DNA of 64,000 bases, from the IMG/VR virus record IMGVR_UViG_3300049472_000073, positions 24,155 to 88,154 of that record; one strand, written 5' to 3'. The DNA is from a virus (lineage: Duplodnaviria; Caudoviricetes). A program made the position numbers and the translations under genes. How positions within the stretch are numbered: position 1 is the first letter of the stretch; each line of letters opens with the position of its first letter. Under the pieces are notes generated by a model that did no database searches, was not told the origin of the DNA, and saw only the letters and a list, made by a program, of their open reading frames with translations. Positions 2,732-63,598 of this stretch are shown here, in pieces.

Positions 2732-5700
2732 ATGGCTGATGTAGTTGTTCTAAAATGTTCAGGGTTAAATACTGATCCTAACAATCTTGGCAGCGTTCCT
2801 AACGGTGCTTTGGTACAAGCAGATAACATTTACATCTCTAGATCAGACATTGCAGAGCCACGTAGAGGATTTAAAGTCTACGGTGACTCTTTTGGTATAG
2901 CAAGTGATAGAGCTAAACAGCTATTACAATACAAAGAACAGGTTTTACGTCATTATGGCTCAGTATTACAAAGGGATAACGGCTCAGGCACGTTTACTTC
3001 CTACGCTGAATCAGTTAATGAGGTAATCGCCGGAACTAAAATAAAGTATACCGAACAAAACGGTAACTTATACTTCACTTCTGCTGAAGGTATACGTAAA
3101 CTAGACGCTCTTACTAGCCCAATCACATTGGCTGGTGGAGTAAAAGCCTTAGATGTTGAAGCTCAACTAGTAGATGCTGAAGGTTTCTTTAATCAAGACT
3201 CTCAAGTAGCCTATAGAGTTCTATGGGGCTATAAAGATCTTAATAATAATATCATTTACGGAACTCCTTCTCAACGAGCTATCGTAATTAACTCTATTTT
3301 GAGCTTACTTACTAGCGATATGACCAAGCTTACCGAGAGATTAGACCTAGACCCAGGTGTAACTGACACCAATTATAACTCTTTATACGCTTTTAATGGT
3401 ACAGAGACCGAAACTCAAGCTTATGACAAGCTAAAGAACTTAGCAGCTAAGCTAAATAAAGATGCTACAGTAGTTAGTACTGATTTTGCTGCTTCTGGTA
3501 AACAAAATGAGACCACTATCGTATGTGGAGACGCTGCTTCACTCACCACTGGAGATTATTTCTTAGTTAATTCTGCAAATGATGAAACAAAATACTACGT
3601 TTGGTATAATAAAGACGGTGGTGGTGGAGATCCAGCCCTATTAGGATACACAGGTATCGCTGTAGTTATTTCCACAGGTAATACAAACGTACAAGTAGCT
3701 ACAGCTACAGCAGCAGCTTTAAATGCTGCGGCTAGTTTCAATTCTGAATCGTCCTCATTTACTGTAATTGTTCGTAACGTATTAGAAGGTGCTTGCATGG
3801 AAACTGCTGATAGCACTTCTAACCAAACGGAATTTGATTTCACAACAACCCAGTCAGGCAGCACTTTAGAAGCTCCTGATTTTACACAAGTACAACAAGC
3901 TTTTGATAGCATTGTTGATAAACTAAACGTAGACGGTGAGACCGAAGAAACCACCGTCAATTTCGTAGCAGGTAATCTTTATGCTTCAGCAGGAATGGCT
4001 GACTATTTCGATATTTTTTCTCCTGACAGTACTCAAATTCCTCCATCTGGTCACGACCTTTACAGGGTCTGGTTCAATGTAGGAACTGTAACAGCTCCTA
4101 CTGGTGGTCCTGGCATCACTCTGGTAGAAGTACTACTCAGTGGTACTGAAACTGATGTTCAAGTAGCTGAAAAAGTAGCTACAGCTTTAGCGGCCTATGA
4201 TTTTATCGTAGGTATTGTAGCTAACCCAATGATCATTCAGGCACCTAAAACAGGTACGGTAACTGACGCTGCTGAAACCGTAGCTGATGCTGGATTTACA
4301 GTAACCGCTTCTACAAGTGGTACTGGATCGTCTTATCTATATCAAAACAGTACTCAGTCACAACAAGTACAGTTAACCTTTACTATACCTTCTGAGGTAA
4401 TAAATGCTGCTGTACCTACTGATTACTTCTATCAACTATACCGATCTAGCTTATCTATCTCTGGAGATGTTTCTCCTGATGATAATCTTCAATTAGTATA
4501 CGAATCTAACCCTACTCCTGCTGAAGTAACAGCTAAACTTGTTACAGTAATAGATATTACTCCTGATTCATTCAGAGGGGCTAACCTTTATACTAATCCT
4601 AACCAAGAAGGTATTGTTCAGTCAAATGAAAAACCACCTTTGGCTAAGGATATTGCTGCATATAAGAACTCTTTGTTCTACGCTAATACTAGTTCTGTAC
4701 AACGTAAAGAACTTAGTATGCTTGCTATTACGGATTTAGTTCCTGTGAATGGTCAGATAGAAGAGTTTTCAGCATCACTACCTAACGTAGTAAACATCTC
4801 TTCTGTGGGCCATGAACTATCTACTGGTAACTCAGTTACTATTTCTGGTTCTAGCGAGCCACTACTAAACGGTACATTTACCGTTACTGTAATAGACGAT
4901 GATACCTTCTCTATTCCTTTAACAGGAGTACTACTACCAGGTGATACTGGTATCTGGACTAGAAATAGTGCTGGATTTTCTAAGCTTACGTTTAAATCTG
5001 GACTAAATCAATTTGATATTAAGTTTGGTAACTACGAAGATATTACTACTGGAGTAGTTAAGTTATCTATATTAGATACCCCTGCTCAACAAGTAGATGA
5101 GACTGCTAAAAACATGTGTAAGGTAATGAACCGTTACACTGGTAATACATTCTTAAACGCATTTTATATTTCTGGAGTAGATGATCTACCAGGTAAAATG
5201 CTATTTGAAGCTCGTACTCTTAGTACTGCTCAATTTGGAATAGGTGCTGAGAGCACAGGATTAAATACTACTGGAAATCAATTCAGTCCCACTATTCCTT
5301 TGTTCCCAGCTACTACTGATTCTGATAATCAACAAAATCCTAATAGGGTTTATTATTCTAAGTTCCAACAACCTGAAGCTGTACCTGCTCTTAACTACCT
5401 TGAGGTAGGAGGAAAAGATTCTCCTATTAAACGTATGGTGGCTCTAAGAGACAGTCTGTTTGTATTTAAAACTGACGGTATTTACCGCATTAGTGGTAAC
5501 GACATCACAAGCCTTAACCTTCAGCTATTTGATAACTCTCTACATATATTGGCCCCTGAGACTGCGGCTGTAGGATCTAACCAGATCTACGTAGTAACGG
5601 ATCAAGGTATTGTAGCTGTATCTGATGTAGGTATTAGACCTATTGACGCAAATAAGATCAGTGATACGTTAGTAGTCCCTTTACTAGGACATCCTAACCT

Positions 5701-11251: not shown

Positions 11252-13738
11252 ATGGCTGATAAATTAGACCTAGAGCCTTTAGATTTAGAACCTTTAGAGT
11301 CAAGTAATAAGCTCGATTTGGAGCCTCTTGACCTAGAGCCAGTAGAAGAGGAAAAATCCTTTCTACAATCTGCTAAAGAGACAGGTACTGGTTTATTACG
11401 TGGAGCAGAACAAGGTGCCACATTAGGTTTTGCTGATGAATTAGGTACAATGATCGAGAATTACCGACTCAAGAAAGAACTTGAGAGAATGGGTTTAGAT
11501 CAAGATACCCTTAATACTAAAGCTCAATCTGAACTTGCTAAACAAGAAAAAGCAAACTTAGAAGGTACTAGACAAGAGTATAGAGCTGCTCAAGAAGCTG
11601 CTCCTATAGCATATGGAACAGGACAATTAGGTGGTGCTGTAGCTACTGGTATGGCAACAGCTCCCTTAGCTGGTGCTGGTAGTCTAGCAAGACTATCTGC
11701 ATTAGGGGCTACTGAAGGTGCCGTTACTGGTTATGGAACTAGTGAAGCTGAAACTTTAGAAGGAGCATTACCTGAAATTGCTACTGGTGCTGCATTTGGA
11801 GCCTTAGCTCCTGGTGCTGCTAAAGCATTAGCTCCTGTAGGTAGAATGGCTTTGGCTCCTGTAAAGGCTGTAGGTAGAACTGCTAAAAAAGTATTATCCG
11901 ATTTAGGAGAAGCCGAAGTATTTAAAGACGTAAAAAGAGGTTTTGAATACGGAACTAAAAAAGGACAGACCTTGTTTAGTGAACAACCTGCTAGAGAAGC
12001 TGGAGAACAGCTAGAAAAGACTTTAGGAGACACTTTAGGAGTAGTATCTGGAGCTAAAAAAACCGCACTAGAAACTACTGAAAAAGCCCAACAAGAAATA
12101 CTTGAGCGTACTAAGGCTGCTGAAGCTGAAATGTTAGCCGCATCACAAAAAGCACAAGAAAAAGTGGCTAAAGACTTAGCTGCTGCTGAAGCTGCTGAAC
12201 AAGCAAATAAAAAACTAGTTCAAGAACAAAAAATTGCATTTGAAAAAGGAAAACAATCTACTGTAAGTTCATTAAATAAGAAAGTAGATCAGAGTGCTAG
12301 AACATTAGCAGATAAATATGCTAATTTATATAATAGTCTTGGTACATCTAGAAAAGCCGTAGTAGCTGGACTAGAACAACAAGGTGTCAAAGTTGATACT
12401 CTTCCGTTTGAAGAGCAATTAACTAAAATGTTCGGAAACTTAACTACTGATGAGAGAGGACTAACTACGTTCTCTAATATGCGTAATATCAACGCTATTG
12501 ACACTCAAAAAATAAGTAGTATCCTAGACGATGTTAGAAAATTCCAAGGTGAGATCCCTTATTCTAAAGTAGAAGAGCTTAAAGACCTATTACAAAAGTA
12601 CGCTTATGGTAGAGGTGGTTTAACTGACGAAAGTAAACGCTCTATGAAAGCTTTGTATGATTCTATGAACAAGTCTATAGATGCTAGCCTTAAAGCTCAA
12701 GGACTAGAAGAGTCTGCTAAGCGTTTAAATGAGATTAATAAAGGCTTTAGAACTCTTTATAAAGCTCAAGATATTGGACTAGAGAAACTAGCTCCAGATG
12801 AACTAATCTCTGGCACTGGATATCAAAAACTTGCTCGTCAAGTAGGTTCTGAAGACTATACTCCTCAATTTGGTGAACAAAAAGAGCGTATGCTTGCTAA
12901 TATTGAGGAATTACTTGCTTCGCCTGCTGTTTCAGAGGAACAAAAACAAGCCTTAAGACAAGCATTAGAAGAAGCTAAGTCTACATCTCAGAAATTAGTT
13001 GGGGCAGAAGCAGAAACCTTTACTCCAAATATACCAGAAGTACAAAAACCTGCTCCTTTAGATAAGAATATGTTCAAAGTAGATGAAGAAGCTATCAGAA
13101 AAGAAGTACTAGCTACTCCTGAAGTAGCTGCTGCTGATAAAGCTATGGCCCAAGTAAAAGACGTAGAGCAAGTATTCGGAGACGTACTTACAAGAGGTAC
13201 AAAAGAAGCTAGATTACCTTCTAAAGCCTTAACTACTGCTGAAGTAGCAGGTACAGACCAGTATGCTGCTAAGCTAAAAGAACTTGAGTCACTTAGAAAA
13301 GCTGTAACTGAATTGGACCCTGAAAAAGCTGCTCAAGTATTACCTGAACTCGATAAAGCTATTGAAGAGATAGGCTTCTTGACCAGAACTGGACGATCAG
13401 TACCTATCGGTGACTTAACTACTCAAGCTACTGGTGGTATTAGAGCTTTGGCCGTTAAAGGTGCAAGTGCTTTAGGAGCTACTAAAATGGCTATTAAAGA
13501 AGAAATAAAAAAAGCTACTCCAGATAGCTTAAAAAATGTAGCTAAGTTTATTAGATCAAGTACACAAAAAGCTGGTGAAGCTGGAGCAAAAACAGGACAA
13601 CAAACCAGAGAAGTATTTGCTCAGATGTTGGATAAAGCTGCTGATAACCCCGATAAGATAGCTAGAAGTGCAACCGTATTTATGTTATTACAGGACCCTA
13701 AGTATAGAGAGATAATGGACGAAGAAAATAAGGAATAA
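11252..13738 (+). CDS. large probable ejection protein (828 aa)
   Basis: GAEQGATLGFADEL motif and Gly/Ala-rich hydrophobic segments; N-terminal LDLEP repeats. Confidence 0.6.
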   Translation: MADKLDLEPLDLEPLESSNKLDLEPLDLEPVEEEKSFLQSAKETGTGLLRGAEQGATLGFADELGTMIENYRLKKELERMGLDQDTLNTKAQSELAKQEKANLEGTRQEYRAAQEAAPIAYGTGQLGGAVATGMATAPLAGAGSLARLSALGATEGAVTGYGTSEAETLEGALPEIATGAAFGALAPGAAKALAPVGRMALAPVKAVGRTAKKVLSDLGEAEVFKDVKRGFEYGTKKGQTLFSEQPAREAGEQLEKTLGDTLGVVSGAKKTALETTEKAQQEILERTKAAEAEMLAASQKAQEKVAKDLAAAEAAEQANKKLVQEQKIAFEKGKQSTVSSLNKKVDQSARTLADKYANLYNSLGTSRKAVVAGLEQQGVKVDTLPFEEQLTKMFGNLTTDERGLTTFSNMRNINAIDTQKISSILDDVRKFQGEIPYSKVEELKDLLQKYAYGRGGLTDESKRSMKALYDSMNKSIDASLKAQGLEESAKRLNEINKGFRTLYKAQDIGLEKLAPDELISGTGYQKLARQVGSEDYTPQFGEQKERMLANIEELLASPAVSEEQKQALRQALEEAKSTSQKLVGAEAETFTPNIPEVQKPAPLDKNMFKVDEEAIRKEVLATPEVAAADKAMAQVKDVEQVFGDVLTRGTKEARLPSKALTTAEVAGTDQYAAKLKELESLRKAVTELDPEKAAQVLPELDKAIEEIGFLTRTGRSVPIGDLTTQATGGIRALAVKGASALGATKMAIKEEIKKATPDSLKNVAKFIRSSTQKAGEAGAKTGQQTREVFAQMLDKAADNPDKIARSATVFMLLQDPKYREIMDEENKE

Positions 13739-43596: not shown

Positions 43597-43820
43597 TATT
43601 TAAGTAGCTCCTCTAGTTCCTGATCAAATTGTTTTAGTGCTTTATAATGTGGCAGTTCCTTAAAGCTACTGTTGTAGTAAAGATGTATACTCCTACCAAC
43701 AAAGTTATTCTTATCATCATATAGTACATTAAATTCAGATGCCATTCCGTATTCGGCTGACTGTTGACACTCTAAGATATAACCTTGATACTCATATACT
43801 GCTTCTACTTTGGGCTTCAT
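43596..43820 (-). CDS. FDxxLEELL-tag family protein
   Basis: ...HYKALKQFDQELEELLK*. Confidence 0.85.
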   Translation of the reverse strand: MKPKVEAVYEYQGYILECQQSAEYGMASEFNVLYDDKNNFVGRSIHLYYNSSFKELPHYKALKQFDQELEELLK

Positions 43821-44296
43821 GAGTATACAATCTCCTTTACCTTAGCCTTAACTTTCTTTACATGCTGAGATACATTAGCCTCTGTAGTATCTAACTCCTT
43901 GGCTACGTCTCGCATACTCTTATCGTCAATAAATCCTTCTATAATAGCAGTCTCAGTGTAGTTAAACTTCCAATTAGAAAGTCTCTCTAAGTCTTCTTTA
44001 GCTTCATAAAAGTCCTGCTTATAGCTTTGTTTAGATAGATCATCTACCATTTGTGAACTACCTACGTAGTTTATTTGTAATGGCTGTAATCGTCTCTTAT
44101 CTCCTAGCATCCTAAGTACATCTAGTACTATATATCTAGCTCTCTGTGCTAAAAAACTACCGTCTATCTCACCGTCATCATATTCCCATAACCTAATGAC
44201 TACTTCCTGAATAATGTCTTCATTAGTAGGGTCATCAAATTTATACCTTTTAAACAGCGCAGCTTTAGCAATAGAATAGTAATCGTGCATATCCAC
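43817..44296 (-). CDS. sigma70/ECF-like RNA polymerase sigma factor
   Basis: Region 2-like EDIIQEVVIRLW...ARYIVLDVLR; region 4 HTH SMRDVAKELDTTEANVSQH. Confidence 0.75.
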   Translation of the reverse strand: MDMHDYYSIAKAALFKRYKFDDPTNEDIIQEVVIRLWEYDDGEIDGSFLAQRARYIVLDVLRMLGDKRRLQPLQINYVGSSQMVDDLSKQSYKQDFYEAKEDLERLSNWKFNYTETAIIEGFIDDKSMRDVAKELDTTEANVSQHVKKVKAKVKEIVYS

Positions 44297-54914: not shown

Positions 54915-55358
54915 TTATTGCTTTTTAGGTGTATTAGAGCAGGTCCAGTATGTCATTGTATCAAGTCTAAGCGTACTAGCAACTAAACTAGCTGCCTCTT
55001 GCTTTGAAACTTCTTTACAAAACCCTAACCTTTCAGACATACCGTTAGCATATAGCAGTCTAGCTGAACCCTGCCCCTCAATAAGCATAACAGACTCTTG
55101 TAAATATTCCATATGCGCTAGGTCAACTAAGTCCTGAATAGTATCTAAGTCTTTTGATACTACTAAAAAGCTTTTCTCTTCGCTAGTGATACCGTCTTTA
55201 TCGGTATACATTCCAATACAGTCTACAAAGGATATATTGTTAGCTCTTAAGTATTCGCGTACTGCTATAGTACGTAACTCATTTACGTTATTTGATTCTG
55301 TATGTCTACTAGCTGAAAAGATCATTCCAGTTACGTTATTTAAAGTTATATTGTGCAT
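54915..55358 (-). CDS. S-adenosylmethionine lyase (T3 gp0.3 SAMase family)
   Basis: Aligns by eye to T3 SAMase as recalled: FSASR..., N..R, GMY...EEKS, EYLQESV, ARLLYANG..ERLG...EV; early-gene position. Confidence 0.7.
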   Translation of the reverse strand: MHNITLNNVTGMIFSASRHTESNNVNELRTIAVREYLRANNISFVDCIGMYTDKDGITSEEKSFLVVSKDLDTIQDLVDLAHMEYLQESVMLIEGQGSARLLYANGMSERLGFCKEVSKQEAASLVASTLRLDTMTYWTCSNTPKKQ

Positions 55359-55449: not shown

Positions 55450-55620
55450 TTAGTATTCTAAGGCTTCTTTAATAGCTCGGGCTACTAATTCAGACTTCTT
55501 TTGCCATAACGCTTTAATAGTTTCGTTATCGTCTATATTCGCTTGTGATATTAGGAATTCAATTTCTGCTACTATATCTTGTATTGTTCTTTTGTTTTCT
55601 TTTTTGTTATCGCCGCTCAT
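55450..55620 (-). CDS. first early hypothetical protein (start likely MSGDNKKE at 55620)
   Basis: The track start at 55638 lies inside the upstream sigma54-type box. Confidence 0.5.
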   Translation of the reverse strand: MSGDNKKENKRTIQDIVAEIEFLISQANIDDNETIKALWQKKSELVARAIKEALEY

Positions 55621-55631
55621 ACTTAGGTAGA

Positions 55632-55647
55632 TGCACACGTTATGCCA
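55632..55647 (-). promoter_or_regulatory. sigma54-type -24/-12 box TGGCATAACGTGTGCA facing the early operon
   Basis: GG-N10-GC spacing; predicted +1 near 55621, next to ATG 55620. Confidence 0.5.
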
Positions 55648-55866
55648 AGGCTTAAGTCAATGATTTTATTAGAAACTACTCAAAAATAGGTGTTGAACTA
55701 TTAGTCAGTTTGTGTTAAGAAACAGTTAATAATTAGAATACTCCTGTTATATTAAATACTTAAGCAGGTGTAGAACTATTAGTCACGGTGTCAAGCTGCT
55801 ATACTTCATTCATTCTTAACAGTCAATATCTATTATACATAAGGTCAAATTTGTATTGGGTTGGGT

Positions 55867-56004
55867 TGGCACGTTATTTGCTATATATGCAATATTCATA
55901 CCAATATACGTAGGCACGATTCTTGCTACTACTAGCAGGATCTATGCCAGCTTATGTTAAGATTCTATTAGGCATGATTCTTGCAGAGTGCAAAGGCTAT
56001 GCCA
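55867..56004. promoter_or_regulatory. three head-to-head pairs of sigma54-type boxes
   Basis: + strand TGGCACGTTATTTGCT 55867, AGGCACGATTCTTGCT 55912, AGGCATGATTCTTGCA 55970; - strand TGGTATGAATATTGCA (55888-55903), TGGCATAGATCCTGCT (55934-55949), TGGCATAGCCTTTGCA (55989-56004). Confidence 0.65.
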
Positions 56005-56094
56005 TACCCATAAGGGGATTTTGGGTGTTGGTTATGTTTATATGTGTCTGTGGTACAAGAACGTACTTTTTTAATGGAAGTCTAGGGGAGTAGG

Positions 56095-56103
56095 TAACAA
56101 ATA
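56095..56103 (+). promoter_or_regulatory. candidate late-promoter motif TAACAAATA
   Basis: 5-nt gap before ATG 56109. Confidence 0.55.
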
Positions 56104-56108
56104 GATAT

Positions 56109-57083
56109 ATGAACCAGCAATACCCTTTTTTAAAAGAAGATGAGATTTTAATACCAGGAACTATAAACTGCAGTATATGTGAGAAGGATAAGCCTTATCA
56201 TTATGTAAATCTAAAGGTCTGTGGTGTTGGGCAAAGTAGAGCTAAGCATGTAGATGATGCTGGTAAGAAGTGGGGGAAGGGTAGTAATAAGAAAGTGTGT
56301 CCAGACTGTAGGTTATTTATTGAGACTCAATATAAACATATAGTTGCGGAGCTAACTAGAGAATATAAAGAGAATAAAATCTATAAACTTTCGTGTAAAT
56401 ACTGTTCTAAGGAGTTCACAAGTAGTATAGATAAACGATGCTGCTCTAAAGAGTGCTCTAATAAACTAAATACTAAGATACAAAATGATCGTAGAAAGAG
56501 TCTGAGGGTTCCTAAGACTACCCATAGTACTTGTGAGAGATGCAACAAAGAAGTTATACAAAAAAAACCTACTAGATTTTGTAGCGTTAAATGTAGGGTA
56601 GCAGATTATAATAAAAAAGCTTATATTCCTAGGCCAAAGGTACTTAAGGAAAAGCCTGTAAAGCTTCCTATTGCTCCTAAGAAAGTTATATGTAAAGAGT
56701 GTAAGGTAGGGTTTGAGACTAGTAGGAACGCTGAGTACTGTTCTAAGGTGTGTAGAAAGCGTTGCGCGAGACGCGAAGGCCGTGAGAAGAGATATAAACC
56801 AAATAGAGAGGTAGCTAGAGCAGCTAAAAAGAAGCGAGAGATGGCTATTCTGAAAAGACTGCCTAAATGGGCAAACCATAAAGAGCTAGACAGGATCTAT
56901 AAAGAGCGTCCAGATAACATGCAAGTAGACCATATTATTCCCTTAAGAGGTGAGATAGTAAGTGGGCTGCATGTGGAGTATAATCTTCAGTACTTAACTC
57001 CAGAAGAGAACCATTTTAAAAGGGCTAAGTTTGATGGAACTTATAATAACGAATCGTGGAGAGAAGAACTTACAAATCTATAA
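56109..57083 (+). CDS. HNH endonuclease with multiple zinc-finger repeats
   Basis: Three CxxC...CSxxC repeats; C-terminal LPKWAN...QVDHIIPLRGEIVSGLHVEYNLQYL...ENH. Confidence 0.85.
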   Translation: MNQQYPFLKEDEILIPGTINCSICEKDKPYHYVNLKVCGVGQSRAKHVDDAGKKWGKGSNKKVCPDCRLFIETQYKHIVAELTREYKENKIYKLSCKYCSKEFTSSIDKRCCSKECSNKLNTKIQNDRRKSLRVPKTTHSTCERCNKEVIQKKPTRFCSVKCRVADYNKKAYIPRPKVLKEKPVKLPIAPKKVICKECKVGFETSRNAEYCSKVCRKRCARREGREKRYKPNREVARAAKKKREMAILKRLPKWANHKELDRIYKERPDNMQVDHIIPLRGEIVSGLHVEYNLQYLTPEENHFKRAKFDGTYNNESWREELTNL

Positions 57084-57138: not shown

Positions 57139-57167
57139 TTGACATATAGCTTATATTTCTATAAACT
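57139..57167 (+). promoter_or_regulatory. sigma70-type promoter TTGACA-N17-TAAACT
   Basis: Perfect -35 and 17-nt spacer; ATG 57174 falls at the predicted +1. Confidence 0.7.
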
Positions 57168-59351: not shown

Positions 59352-59765
59352 ATCACTAAGTTCACTATCAAAAGCGTAGGTAGCACCTCTAGTTGAGACT
59401 CCTATTTTTACATATTCTCTGTCTGTAGACTCTATAGGCCAGTTAGAGTACTTCTCTCCGTTTAGATCAAGCTTAGAATAAGTGCTCTTAAACTTATCAG
59501 CATCCCTATACCAGACTTTGTAGTGGCTTCGTCCTATATCTAGGACCTCCATAGCTTCACTACCGTCCCATATCTCCCAGTCTTCTAAATAAGAAGGTCT
59601 AGCCTTACCTATCAAGTCACCTTTTTTGAATTTAGGTTTAGAGCTTACTATCTTGGTTGATCTAAAGATCCTAGAAACCCATTTACTAATCCAAGCTCCT
59701 ATACGTATTTGGGTTAAAAAACTCATGCTTGTCTCATTATAGCCTATCTGGTATAATAATTGCAA
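59337..59765 (-). CDS. FDxxLEELL-tag family protein (variant), lone - strand gene
   Basis: PKFKKGDLI...TYAFDSELSDLIGD*. Confidence 0.75.
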   Translation of the reverse strand: MQLLYQIGYNETSMSFLTQIRIGAWISKWVSRIFRSTKIVSSKPKFKKGDLIGKARPSYLEDWEIWDGSEAMEVLDIGRSHYKVWYRDADKFKSTYSKLDLNGEKYSNWPIESTDREYVKIGVSTRGATYAFDSELSDLIGD

Positions 59766-59778
59766 TAGGTAACAAATA
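59749..59778 (+). promoter_or_regulatory. sigma54-type box TGGTATAATAATTGCA (59749-59764) followed by TAACAAATA (59770-59778)
   Basis: Both motifs read directly; ATG 59784 follows after a 5-nt gap. Confidence 0.5.
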
Positions 59779-59783
59779 TAGAT

Positions 59784-60263
59784 ATGAAAAAGCCAGACTT
59801 AATGATGGATAGCGAAATGGAACAACCTGTTGAACAGGCTCCTGAAGATAAAAATATGTTTATGGAAGCTCTCAGGAAAGCTAGAGATGCTTACGGTTCG
59901 TATGATCCTGCTGCTTCTACTGATAGAGTCGCTAAAATGATTGCTCGTAAGATGGCTGAAAAAGGACAACTAGTAGCTCAAGAAGGTGAGACTCCTGAAA
60001 TGGCTGAAGAGCGTTTAGCTAGTGGAATGTCTCAAGCTGGTCAGATGGGTATGCAAGCTGGTATGTCTGCTGGTAGCATTGCTCCTATCGGTGCTCACTC
60101 ACAAGTAGCTAAAGGATTGGCTCAAGAGATTGGGGCTTTAGGTAAAGCACAAAGTCTTTCTAATCTTGGTGCTAAAGCTGGTGATGCTTCTAAGGTAATT
60201 AATAATAGTCCTAAAATGTCTCCAGAGCAGTTAGCGTTAATGGCTAAGAAACTAGGTTTCTAA
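59784..60263 (+). CDS. M/A/Q-rich protein resembling internal virion proteins
   Basis: Composition similar to the ORFs at 7262-11250. Confidence 0.55.
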   Translation: MKKPDLMMDSEMEQPVEQAPEDKNMFMEALRKARDAYGSYDPAASTDRVAKMIARKMAEKGQLVAQEGETPEMAEERLASGMSQAGQMGMQAGMSAGSIAPIGAHSQVAKGLAQEIGALGKAQSLSNLGAKAGDASKVINNSPKMSPEQLALMAKKLGF

Positions 60264-62383: not shown

Positions 62384-62673
62384 TCGTCATCCTCTCCAAA
62401 CATCTCAATATGTCGGACACTTTCTTTCATAGCTTGAACTATATCATTTCGTTCTTCATCTGACAAGGAGCCATTTGCACTAGGTAGCCTTTCTCTAAAG
62501 AGCTTAAGATTATCTTTATACGCGTCTAAGTACAGATCTACTACAATATCATCGTTTACTCTTTCTGATTCCTGGTTAAGCATTCCTTTAGAACCAGTAC
62601 TAGATCGTTTATTTAGCTTCTTACTCATCGCTAAATCCAAATCCCATCTTCTTAGTCTCATCACTAAAGTCAT
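62380..62673 (-). CDS. hypothetical protein
   Basis: ORF track; true start probably MSKKLNK. Confidence 0.55.
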   Translation of the reverse strand: MTLVMRLRRWDLDLAMSKKLNKRSSTGSKGMLNQESERVNDDIVVDLYLDAYKDNLKLFRERLPSANGSLSDEERNDIVQAMKESVRHIEMFGEDDE

Positions 62674-63598
62674 CTTTTTTAGCTTTAGTAGACTGGGCTA
62701 ATACTTGCTTCATAGACTCTACCATAGAGATATCATAGATCTTAGCTCTAATAACAATTTCTTTAATATGAGCTACTGACAGGTCATTATACTTCTTTAG
62801 TCTGATCTCTTTAGTATCTTCTTCAGTAGCTTGGTTCTTTGAGAAGAACTCTAGGAACTTACCTCTAAATTCAGGTGAAGGATTGCCTACTTTAATTACA
62901 TCATCAAATCGTTGTGGACGATTAGTAAGGTTCTCAAGTAGTGATTCAGGGAAGTTAGTAGTAGCTAGGATAAGGGTAGGTAAGGTAAAAGTCTTCTCTA
63001 CGTTATCTAATAGTGATAACATACTAGACTGTGATGGCATTTTACCTCCGCCATTATACTCTACTCCTCCGATATCTTCTGCTACTAGGATCATCTTTTC
63101 GATATTGCTATCATATGAAATACTTTGTAATAAAGACTTCATATGACGAGCTTCGTATTTGTCCGTATTCCAAACTAACACGAAGGTCTTACCATCTTGT
63201 AAGTATTTATTAACCGCTTTGGTAATGATACGTGTCTTACCTGTGCCCTGGCTTCCGTATAACAAGCATCCTCGTTTAGGGAATACTCCGAACTCTTTGT
63301 ATACGTCGATTTTACTAAAGAATTTATCAATCTTAGTACTTACTTCTTCTGTATGAATGTACTCTTCTAAAAGAGGCTCATTCATAAATTCGGTAGGTAT
63401 AAGCTTAGCCTCAAAATTACTAACCTCAATTCTATAGAGACCAGGTTTAGCCTCAATAGCATCTTCTTTGTCTTCACTAACAAACTTGTACTGGTAGAAC
63501 GTACCATCTTCAAAATGTGAGAAGTCAGACTCTTCAATTTCTTGTCCAATATTAAATTCTTTAACATTTAATTTATTCCTCAGTATAAACTTGCCCAT
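62621..63598 (-). CDS. AAA+ ATPase (FtsH/26S-like ATPase domain)
   Basis: RGCLLYGSQGTGKT; LVAEDI; LATTN; NRPQRFD. Confidence 0.85.
   Translation of the reverse strand: MGKFILRNKLNVKEFNIGQEIEESDFSHFEDGTFYQYKFVSEDKEDAIEAKPGLYRIEVSNFEAKLIPTEFMNEPLLEEYIHTEEVSTKIDKFFSKIDVYKEFGVFPKRGCLLYGSQGTGKTRIITKAVNKYLQDGKTFVLVWNTDKYEARHMKSLLQSISYDSNIEKMILVAEDIGGVEYNGGGKMPSQSSMLSLLDNVEKTFTLPTLILATTNFPESLLENLTNRPQRFDDVIKVGNPSPEFRGKFLEFFSKNQATEEDTKEIRLKKYNDLSVAHIKEIVIRAKIYDISMVESMKQVLAQSTKAKKDDFSDETKKMGFGFSDE

Follow-up and report, generated by a model that had tools for sequence, protein, structure and literature searches.

Sigma-54 is the sole bacterial sigma factor that binds its promoters silently and needs an ATP-driven activator before transcription can start, and its specificity is universal. 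To our knowledge, a 10-nt spacing of promoter elements is known only for sigma-54, and no other known factor combines this sequence specificity with that spacing. Bacterial sigma-54 promoters such as glnAp2, pspA and nifH share the pattern TGGCAC(G)-N4/5-TTGC(W), in which exactly 10 nt separate GG from GC. The holoenzyme has a footprint of about 30 bp, and an E. coli cell contains about 100 copies of sigma-54. The E. coli hyc-hyp genes form a divergent sigma-54 regulon sharing a central enhancer (FhlA sites). We know of no phage that builds its control region around sigma-54, and no account of sigma-54-type box arrays on phage DNA came up in a full-text search of the literature. In phage lambda, three dyad-like operator sites stand in a row between divergent early genes (OR1-3 and OL1-3), and T4-type phages reportedly carry PeSL (promoter-early stem-loop) modules at cassette borders, said to have been described by Arbiol et al. 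in 2010. The closest match in that search is a 2026 preprint (bioRxiv 10.64898/2026.10.06.757011) on Htm (Gp204), an AAA+ protein of the phage Mosigvirus AV110 whose proposed fold is bEBP-like but which has no GAFTGA motif. It offers a precedent, itself still hypothetical, for phage action on sigma-54 RNA polymerase that needs no canonical activator.

The phage studied here is an uncultured phage from freshwater sediment, whose IMG/VR record of 88,154 bp is rated complete by CheckV; the window, meaning the whole stretch of DNA analysed (64,000 nt), comprises bases 24155-88154 of that record. A box array sits in a 470-nt gap separating two divergent gene blocks. The first leftward gene is a 56-aa ORF (ATG at 55620), followed by a SAM lyase gene (54915..55358, - strand; PF23780, E = 1.7e-19) and further leftward by genes for a MoxR-like ATPase with its VWA partner, a class II ribonucleotide reductase, a PD-(D/E)XK nuclease, a primase-helicase and a family-A DNA polymerase. 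SAM lyase is an early anti-restriction function. On the right, a 324-aa HNH-endonuclease-like gene (56109..57083, + strand; PHROG 1271, E = 4e-15) is followed by a series of small ORFs, and a sigma-70-type promoter, TTGACA-17-TAAACT (57139..57167, + strand), precedes this rightward small-gene operon. Since the 324-aa gene is absent at the same position in L247, a close relative, it is an insertion between the array and the rightward promoter, outside the ancestral module; the L247 counterpart of that promoter (TTGACT) lies about 90 nt from the L247 array. No strong sigma-70 promoter was seen beside the first leftward gene.

The boxes were scored at 12 positions against the bacterial sigma-54 consensus TGGCACG-N4-TTGCW. 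The six boxes of the original prediction were seen again at 55868-56003 on direct inspection of the sequence, each with the exact GG-N10-GC spacing. Box 1, GGCACGTTATTTGC / TTGGCACGTTATTTGCT (55868..55881, + strand), matches the consensus at 12/12 positions and faces its convergent partner box 2, GGTATGAATATTGC (55889..55902, - strand), with the GC elements 7 nt apart. Box 3, GGCACGATTCTTGC / AGGCACGATTCTTGCT (55913..55926, + strand), matches at 11/12 positions and faces box 4, GGCATAGATCCTGC (55935..55948, - strand), across a spacer of 8 nt, and box 5, GGCATGATTCTTGC / AGGCATGATTCTTGCA (55971..55984, + strand), faces box 6, GGCATAGCCTTTGC (55990..56003, - strand), across 5 nt. The remaining array boxes match at 9-10/12 positions. 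The arrangement as three inverted pairs was also borne out, and the gaps of 7, 8 and 5 nt between facing GC elements become the predicted 3-6 nt once the W at either side is included in the boxes. To these six we add box 7, GGCATAACGTGTGC (55633..55646, - strand), a solitary and weaker box that adjoins the first leftward gene, 12 nt upstream of the ATG at 55620, and points into the leftward SAM-lyase/replication operon, in which the SAM lyase gene lies downstream of it. The exact spacing is common to the seven boxes, whose agreement with the consensus ranges from 9 to 12 of 12 positions. The pattern GGCAY-N5-YTGC has five matches in the 64 kb, all in one 136-nt stretch, compared to 0.85 expected, and 1/100 shuffles reached five matches. 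The whole 88,154-bp genome contains one extra match, which is intragenic, and the box cluster is the sole one of its kind in the 88-kb genome.

Several other elements surround the array. A 20-nt direct repeat, confined to the control region, is present in two copies 78 nt apart, copy 1 at 55688..55707 (+ strand; AGGTGTTGAACTATTAGTCA, then CAGTTTGTGTTAAGA) and copy 2 at 55766..55785 (+ strand; AGGTGTAGAACTATTAGTCA). Copy 1 is identical in L247, and copy 2 has box 7 on one side and the array on the other, each at an enhancer-like distance. When an exact 19-mer of this repeat was searched in metagenome contigs, it matched only unrelated coding DNA. Left of the array are two candidate sigma-70 -10 elements, TG-n-TATACT at 55800 (+ strand) and TATAAT at 55832-55837 (- strand), the latter conserved in L247. 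Between pairs 2 and 3 is a conserved stretch, CAGCTTATGTTAAGA (55948..55962, + strand), whose TG-n-TAAGAT is extended -10-like; in the more distant relative G003 the same CTTATGTTAAGA comes after the box pair. A G-rich tract, GGGGATTTTGGGTGTTGG (56014..56031, + strand), flanks the array.

The boxes of this phage are like bacterial sigma-54 promoters in both sequence and element spacing, and the solitary boxes of the phage and its relatives, like those promoters, are correctly oriented upstream of genes. Different from bacterial sigma-54 promoters, the phage genome encodes neither sigma-54 nor a bEBP, and the phage has no recognised enhancer for a known bEBP. The sites are also packed differently. 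Instead of one non-overlapping site per promoter, there are six boxes in 136 nt, with gaps of 5-8 nt within pairs; across the array they lie 5-22 nt apart in alternating orientation and would be mutually exclusive, and packing of this density is not known to us in bacterial regulons. As in hyc-hyp, outward-facing -24/-12 boxes flank repeated upstream elements 70-200 bp away, but the central elements of the phage are direct repeats of no assigned specificity, and inward-facing boxes are present as well. The row of three dyad-like sites between divergent early genes resembles the lambda operators, whereas the half-site spacing varies here, the boxes are asymmetric, one unit is tandem in L247, and the consensus is common to unrelated phages. 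As in PeSL, promoter-like modules are repeated in a phage early region; however, there is one cluster in the main control region here rather than one module per cassette, and the boxes have no stable stem-loops and are not of the sigma-70 type.

L247, an 87-kb contig reached via an ATPase homologue of 92% identity, has a control region that aligns with that of the window and provides a phylogenetic footprint. For the six alignable boxes, only 1/42 positions of the GGCA/TGC core differ (GGTA to GGCA), whereas the N positions of the same boxes differ at 15/42 and the surrounding non-box DNA at 70/318 (binomial P = 4e-4 for the core). Judged from this comparison, selection is confined to exactly the bases that sigma-54 reads, leaving the N positions free. 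Bacterial sigma-54 promoters likewise have their substitutions confined to unimportant positions, and the conserved E. coli sigma-54 sites found by ChIP-seq show the same substitution pattern (Bonocora et al. 2015, PMC4591121). Box 3 is identical in L247, and box 2 reads GGCATAGATATTGC, with the spacer between boxes 1 and 2 reduced from 7 to 5 nt. Box 4 keeps its core with 4/7 N positions changed and its spacer reduced from 8 to 5 nt, and box 7 keeps its core with 6/7 N positions changed. At the position of box 6, L247 carries a + strand box, GGCATGGATCTTGC, so that the third unit consists of two tandem boxes; the arrangement of the boxes is thus plastic, and the orientation of a box can flip even between close relatives. 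The boxes keep their asymmetric flanks, with G before GCA and with T before and W after TGC. Because the spacers shift, the third unit is tandem in L247 and the flanks are asymmetric, the unit is a directional box and not one half of a palindrome for a dimer. L247 has no 56-aa ORF, and its box 7 stands 57 nt ahead of the ATG of the SAM lyase gene, which has an SD. The ATG 12 nt after box 7 as a transcription start, giving a leaderless message, is weakened as a candidate, since this ATG is not conserved in L247.

Each of the eight lineage members for which this control region was available, namely the window, L247, L369, L370, G003, L103, L041 and L067, has a box cluster there. The more distant relatives show 33-54% identity at the protein level for TerL, portal, PolA or ATPase, and their intergenic DNA cannot be aligned. 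The number and arrangement of boxes differ among members: the control region of G003/L073 has one pair and three single boxes, those of L103 and L041 have six to seven boxes, some of them tandem, and that of L067 has three convergent pairs and two single boxes, while L369 has five boxes in a divergent gap and L370 has two groups, of three and two boxes. Solitary boxes near genes recur, with one in G003 (4828-4841) lying 42 nt before an ATG with an SD, one in L067 (13081-13094) lying 95 nt before an ATG, and a further box in G003 standing 12 nt before an ATG, analogous to box 7. In 8/8 members the cluster has a G-run at its side (a C-run where the locus is reversed), always within about 15-35 nt of a box pointing into it, and two copies of an AGAACTA-type repeat lie beside the cluster in the window, L247, G003 and L067. 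These comparisons define a lineage-wide module of a single box, repeats, the array and the G-run. Outside the lineage, no cultured relative was found in the phage collection, the best PolA match being 30% identical (a Flavobacterium phage) with negligible DNA similarity, and the 324-aa gene and the SAM lyase as queries retrieved no related loci from viral or metagenome contigs.

Similar clusters occur far beyond this lineage. A scan of IMG/VR for convergent pairs gave at least 120 loci, many with arrays of two to four pairs, and among the matches listed the loci fall into at least 54 gene-sharing groups with a GC content of 30-68%, with convergent spacers of 4 to 8 nt and never 9. The corresponding scan for tandem pairs also gave at least 120 loci, compared to about one or two expected by chance according to our estimate. 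Among the 236 loci listed, the preferred gaps are 4-8 nt for convergent, 3-5 or 10-15 nt for tandem and 7-12 nt for divergent pairs; the largest clusters among the matches listed hold 13-14 tandem boxes with an 18-nt period. Divergent gene pairs are over-represented at gaps that carry box pairs (OR 2.6, P = 2e-4, from crude ORF calls and non-independent loci). Counted by similarity cluster, tandem pairs face the downstream ORF in a non-significant ratio of 24:15. ATGs seemed to peak 13 nt past the boxes, but this proved to be an artefact of CATGCC in the partner box. Across the groups of the at least 120 IMG/VR loci, no protein family is shared near the pairs except terminase and portal, and no cultured relative of a family of arrays with a 47-nt period was found in the phage collection. 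A single repeated element of saprophytic Leptospira makes up most of the matches to the pattern in bacterial genomes. Among the titled entries of that scan, three matches in Actinobacteria are hairpin-type palindromes with N5 arms complementary at 4-5/5 positions, and the non-hairpin pairs fall in phyla that generally have sigma-54.

We searched the phage genome for a reader of its own. The original prediction that no GAFTGA-containing activator is visible holds for the whole genome, in which PF00158 had no match at E<=1 and no GAFTGA motif is present. Neither an RpoN box nor a sigma-54 DNA-binding domain was found in the phage genome, and no T7-type RNA polymerase was found in it, a family for which control genomes gave no signal either. 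Two ATPases were considered as hidden activators and set aside on their sequences: the 382-aa one belongs to an AAA_5/MoxR-type family and is paired with the VWA protein, and the 325-aa one is Cdc48-like. No Htm-like protein was identified here. Because the phage is without an RNA polymerase, a sigma-54 or an activator of its own, the host sigma-54 RNA polymerase is the most likely reader. A universal host reader is further favoured because one consensus occurs in dozens of unrelated groups that share no phage protein nearby. We therefore consider it probable, with some reserve, that the host sigma-54 RNA polymerase reads the boxes. No host signal came from an atlas look-up of the phage cytochrome c, no tRNA genes are present in the phage genome, and a run search with the phage sequence returned no RNA run, the sole full match being a freshwater-sediment DNA run, perhaps from the sample of origin.

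How the boxes would be used is less certain, and our leading but tentative reading is that they are independent, directional sigma-54-type sites, with the solitary box 7 and the array acting as activator-dependent promoters. Under this reading, the sigma-54 holoenzyme would dock on the boxes as closed complexes, box 7 would serve as the promoter of the leftward SAM-lyase/replication operon, and the six packed boxes, in the middle of the divergent control region, would provide three start sites for either direction. To fire, they would require an AAA+ activator, supplied by the host or by an unrecognised phage factor, which might dock on the pair of 20-nt direct repeats that lie between the array and box 7. 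The data show the match to the consensus, the selection on the bases critical to sigma-54, the persistence of the clusters in the lineage, the directional nature of the box and the lack of a reader encoded by the phage; from these we infer that sigma-54 reads the boxes, that transcription starts at them and that the repeats serve as an enhancer.

Several observations argue for the promoter reading. The consensus match and exact spacing of the boxes, the substitutions in L247 that spare the core but not the N positions, and an asymmetric box with direction-specific flanks that can be placed in tandem or convergently all agree with it, as does the persistence of the clusters in every lineage member despite unalignable intergenic DNA. 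Furthermore, the solitary boxes (box 7 and those of G003 and L067) point at genes from promoter-like distances, the first leftward gene has no strong sigma-70 promoter next to it, and both copies of the 20-nt repeat stand at enhancer-like distances. More broadly, the same reading is supported by the occurrence of the consensus in at least 54 IMG/VR groups across a wide GC range, by the enrichment of pair-bearing gaps for divergent gene pairs and by the phyla of the non-hairpin bacterial pairs. On the other hand, the phage encodes no bEBP, and an early anti-restriction operon relying on an activated host bEBP would be unusual. Boxes 2-8 nt apart could not all hold holoenzyme simultaneously, the related tandem arrays of 13-14 boxes with an 18-nt period resemble a binding-site array more, the orientation bias of tandem pairs in IMG/VR falls short of significance, and the ATG just past box 7 is not conserved in L247. 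The original prediction had held that overlapping convergent boxes are unlikely to be ordinary promoters; the dense overlapping sites of the array are indeed unlike bacterial sigma-54 promoters. The solitary gene-proximal boxes of this phage and its relatives resemble ordinary ones.

A second explanation, less likely but a serious rival, is that the boxes are operators of another DNA-binding protein, of the phage or the host, that recognises GGCAY-N5-TTGC and controls divergent early promoters in a manner like lambda OR/OL. Clustered short repeats with many dyad pairs in a divergent region are a typical phage operator setting, and the arrays have a weak gene-ward orientation bias. Candidate binding proteins would be an early regulator or a 159-aa protein with a sigma-70-region-4/GerE-like HTH; the phage has a weak HTH protein, encoded at 43817-44296, and many small proteins without annotated function whose genes adjoin the region. 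However, neither Pfam nor PHROGs detected a DNA-binding regulator flanking the region, and no adjacent repressor or Cro-type HTH gene was found in the flanking ORFs, small proteins of no known fold aside. The half-site spacing is unfixed (5, 7 and 8 nt here, 5 and 5 nt in L247), and one unit of asymmetric boxes changes from convergent to tandem between relatives. Moreover, operators normally co-diverge with their repressors, but this consensus is found in at least 54 unrelated groups, with GC contents from 30 to 68%, that share only terminase and portal nearby. The earlier suggestion of palindromic operators for another protein lost ground for the same reasons, the spacers and the third unit differing in L247 and tandem pairs being as common as convergent ones in IMG/VR.

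It is unlikely, in our judgement, that the boxes are silent sites for sigma-54 or its holoenzyme, acting either as a sink that titrates a scarce factor while the phage genome replicates or by occlusion or a roadblock in the leaders of sigma-70 transcripts. Such a decoy or roadblock role, raised in the original prediction, is possible because the dense, mutually overlapping sites differ from bacterial sigma-54 promoters. The packing is orientation-agnostic, the 18-nt period fits a 14-16-bp site and not the holoenzyme footprint, the orientation bias of tandem pairs is weak, and the phage is without an activator. Six to seven sites on hundreds of genome copies could exceed the sigma-54 pool. Transcripts from the candidate -10 elements (55800, + strand; 55832-55837, - strand) would cross the array or box 7. 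The sigma-54 holoenzyme binds stably without an activator (PMC4591121), but in the same study intragenic sigma-54 sites of E. coli gave no roadblock effect. A sink, for its part, would need neither a location in the control region nor a fixed solitary box before the first gene, and the benefit of silent sites to the phage is unspecified.

The module of array, G-run and AT-rich surroundings as a replication origin seems very unlikely. Under this reading, the boxes would be iterons for an initiator, or transcripts started at the boxes would form a persistent RNA-DNA hybrid at the G-run that the family-A polymerase extends, as in ColE1. The constant G-run beside a box pointing into it, the turn of the cumulative GC skew at 54-56 kb, and the encoded PolA-type polymerase and primase-helicase are consistent with such a role, but no origin-binding protein was recognised. 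Nevertheless, the skew turns where the genes change direction, which accounts for it without an origin, and the clusters of other lineages lie beside packaging genes, as in one other phage group whose pairs are found about 1.3 kb from TerL. In addition, iterons are normally lineage-specific and of a single orientation, but the boxes are mixed in orientation and their consensus is common to unrelated phages.

Two further proposals concern DNA packaging and entry. TerL lies at genome positions 1036-2538 and the array at 80022-80157, about 9 kb apart across the record ends. At this distance TerL is not immediately beside the array, as might be expected had terminase bound the palindromes, and a reading of the array as a cosB/pac terminase site was rejected for this lineage. 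The suggested use of host RNA polymerase for DNA entry likewise found nothing in its support here.

Finally, that the boxes are chance matches or the pairs ordinary hairpins (terminators or RNA structure) is extremely improbable and, as far as computation goes, refuted: pair 2 does fold at -15.8 kcal/mol (z = -4.3), but pairs 1 and 3 fold no better than shuffles (z = -0.5 and -1.6), no T-run follows any pair, the symmetry within each pair is confined to the conserved blocks, with N5 arms complementary at 0-2/5 positions here and at chance level in 151 viral pairs, no Rfam family scored above threshold, and both the density of strict matches in the 136-nt stretch and the conservation of the core positions argue against it.

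The new contributions of this locus are the phylogenetic footprint on the sigma-54-critical bases, the flip in box orientation and the lineage-wide module. Since the specificity of sigma-54 is universal, the sigma-54 hypothesis is readily testable without culturing the phage or its host. As a more speculative and rather unlikely extension, the dense arrays of perfect sigma-54 sites, packed convergently, in tandem or divergently with up to 14 copies among the matches listed, may serve many unrelated phages that lack a sigma-54 and an activator of their own as a general means of capturing the sigma-54 RNA polymerase of the host, which would either run part of the phage programme via an unrecognised non-GAFTGA activator or be soaked up so that sigma-54-dependent host responses are silenced, and in this lineage the array with its G-run may also prime replication through an R-loop. 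Should the host sigma-54 RNA polymerase be the reader of these clusters, many and diverse uncultured phages would be linked to a host regulatory system in a way that is so far undescribed. If true, this could represent a new promoter class tied to host physiology or membrane stress, or a DNA sponge directed against a host sigma factor.

The box cluster is bordered by a G-run in all eight members of the lineage, or by a C-run where the locus is reversed, despite a genomic GC content of ~37%. This run lies at 56014-56031 in the window, and G- or C-runs flank the clusters of six related contigs at L073:6578-6590 (member G003), L103:~705-745, L041:~315-335, L067:~12630-12660, L369:~2150-2163 and L370:~4640-4675, respectively. 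Possibly, the run acts as an R-loop or G-quadruplex element. Repeats were also found with the clusters. The window carries two copies of the 20-nt repeat AGGTGTWGAACTATTAGTCA (55688-55707 and 55766-55785), which is confined to its control region and is kept in the close relative L247. AGAACTA-type repeats accompany the clusters of G003 and L067, and TATAGAAAC repeats accompany those of L103 and L041.

Next to the array in the window, a 324-aa HNH-endonuclease-like gene (56109-57083; PHROG 1271) is inserted between the boxes and the sigma-70-type promoter at 57139. Comparison with L247 showed no such gene at the equivalent position, and the gene therefore looks like a mobile element of the homing type. 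The motif AGGTAACAAATA was observed twice, directly before the ATG at 56109 (56092-56111) and again directly before that at 59784 (59766-59786). Ahead of the second copy lies a perfect extended -10 element, TGGTATAAT (59750-59758).

Two further proteins of interest are encoded on the minus strand of the window. One (62621-63598) is a classical AAA ATPase of 325 aa that has a single domain and resembles Cdc48/VCP (PDB matches at E = 2e-16); its G003 counterpart shares 33% identity. The other is a 159-aa protein (43817-44296) whose C-terminal part weakly matches an HTH of the sigma-70-region-4/GerE type (E = 0.004), and whose L247 homologue has precomputed matches to GerE and faint ones to Sigma70_r4. 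This protein could serve the phage as a transcription factor.

Box arrays also occur in viral contigs outside the lineage. In a contig family with a GC content of 55%, 13-14 near-perfect sigma-54 cores (TGGCACGGACCTTGCATG) are arranged in tandem on one strand within ~340 nt (L360:4945-5280 and L321:6303-6656), in part with an exact 18-nt period. A large podovirus-like group from IMG/VR (L013, L019, L027, L033, L042, L047, L115 and L120) has three or four convergent box pairs with a 47-nt period, located inside a divergent gap upstream of an operon encoding a 135-aa AT-hook protein, an M15 endolysin, TerL and portal.

In Leptospira, a conserved imperfect palindrome of ~130 nt, centred on the convergent sigma-54-type box pair TGGCATTCGCCTTGC-N4-GCAAGCTACATGCCA, separates co-directional gene cassettes of ~1 kb at L138:1204-6943 and at many other loci in L. 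yanagawae, L. vanthielii, L. soteropolitanensis and L. abararensis. Since this palindrome looks attC-like, the cassette series suggests an integron-like array.
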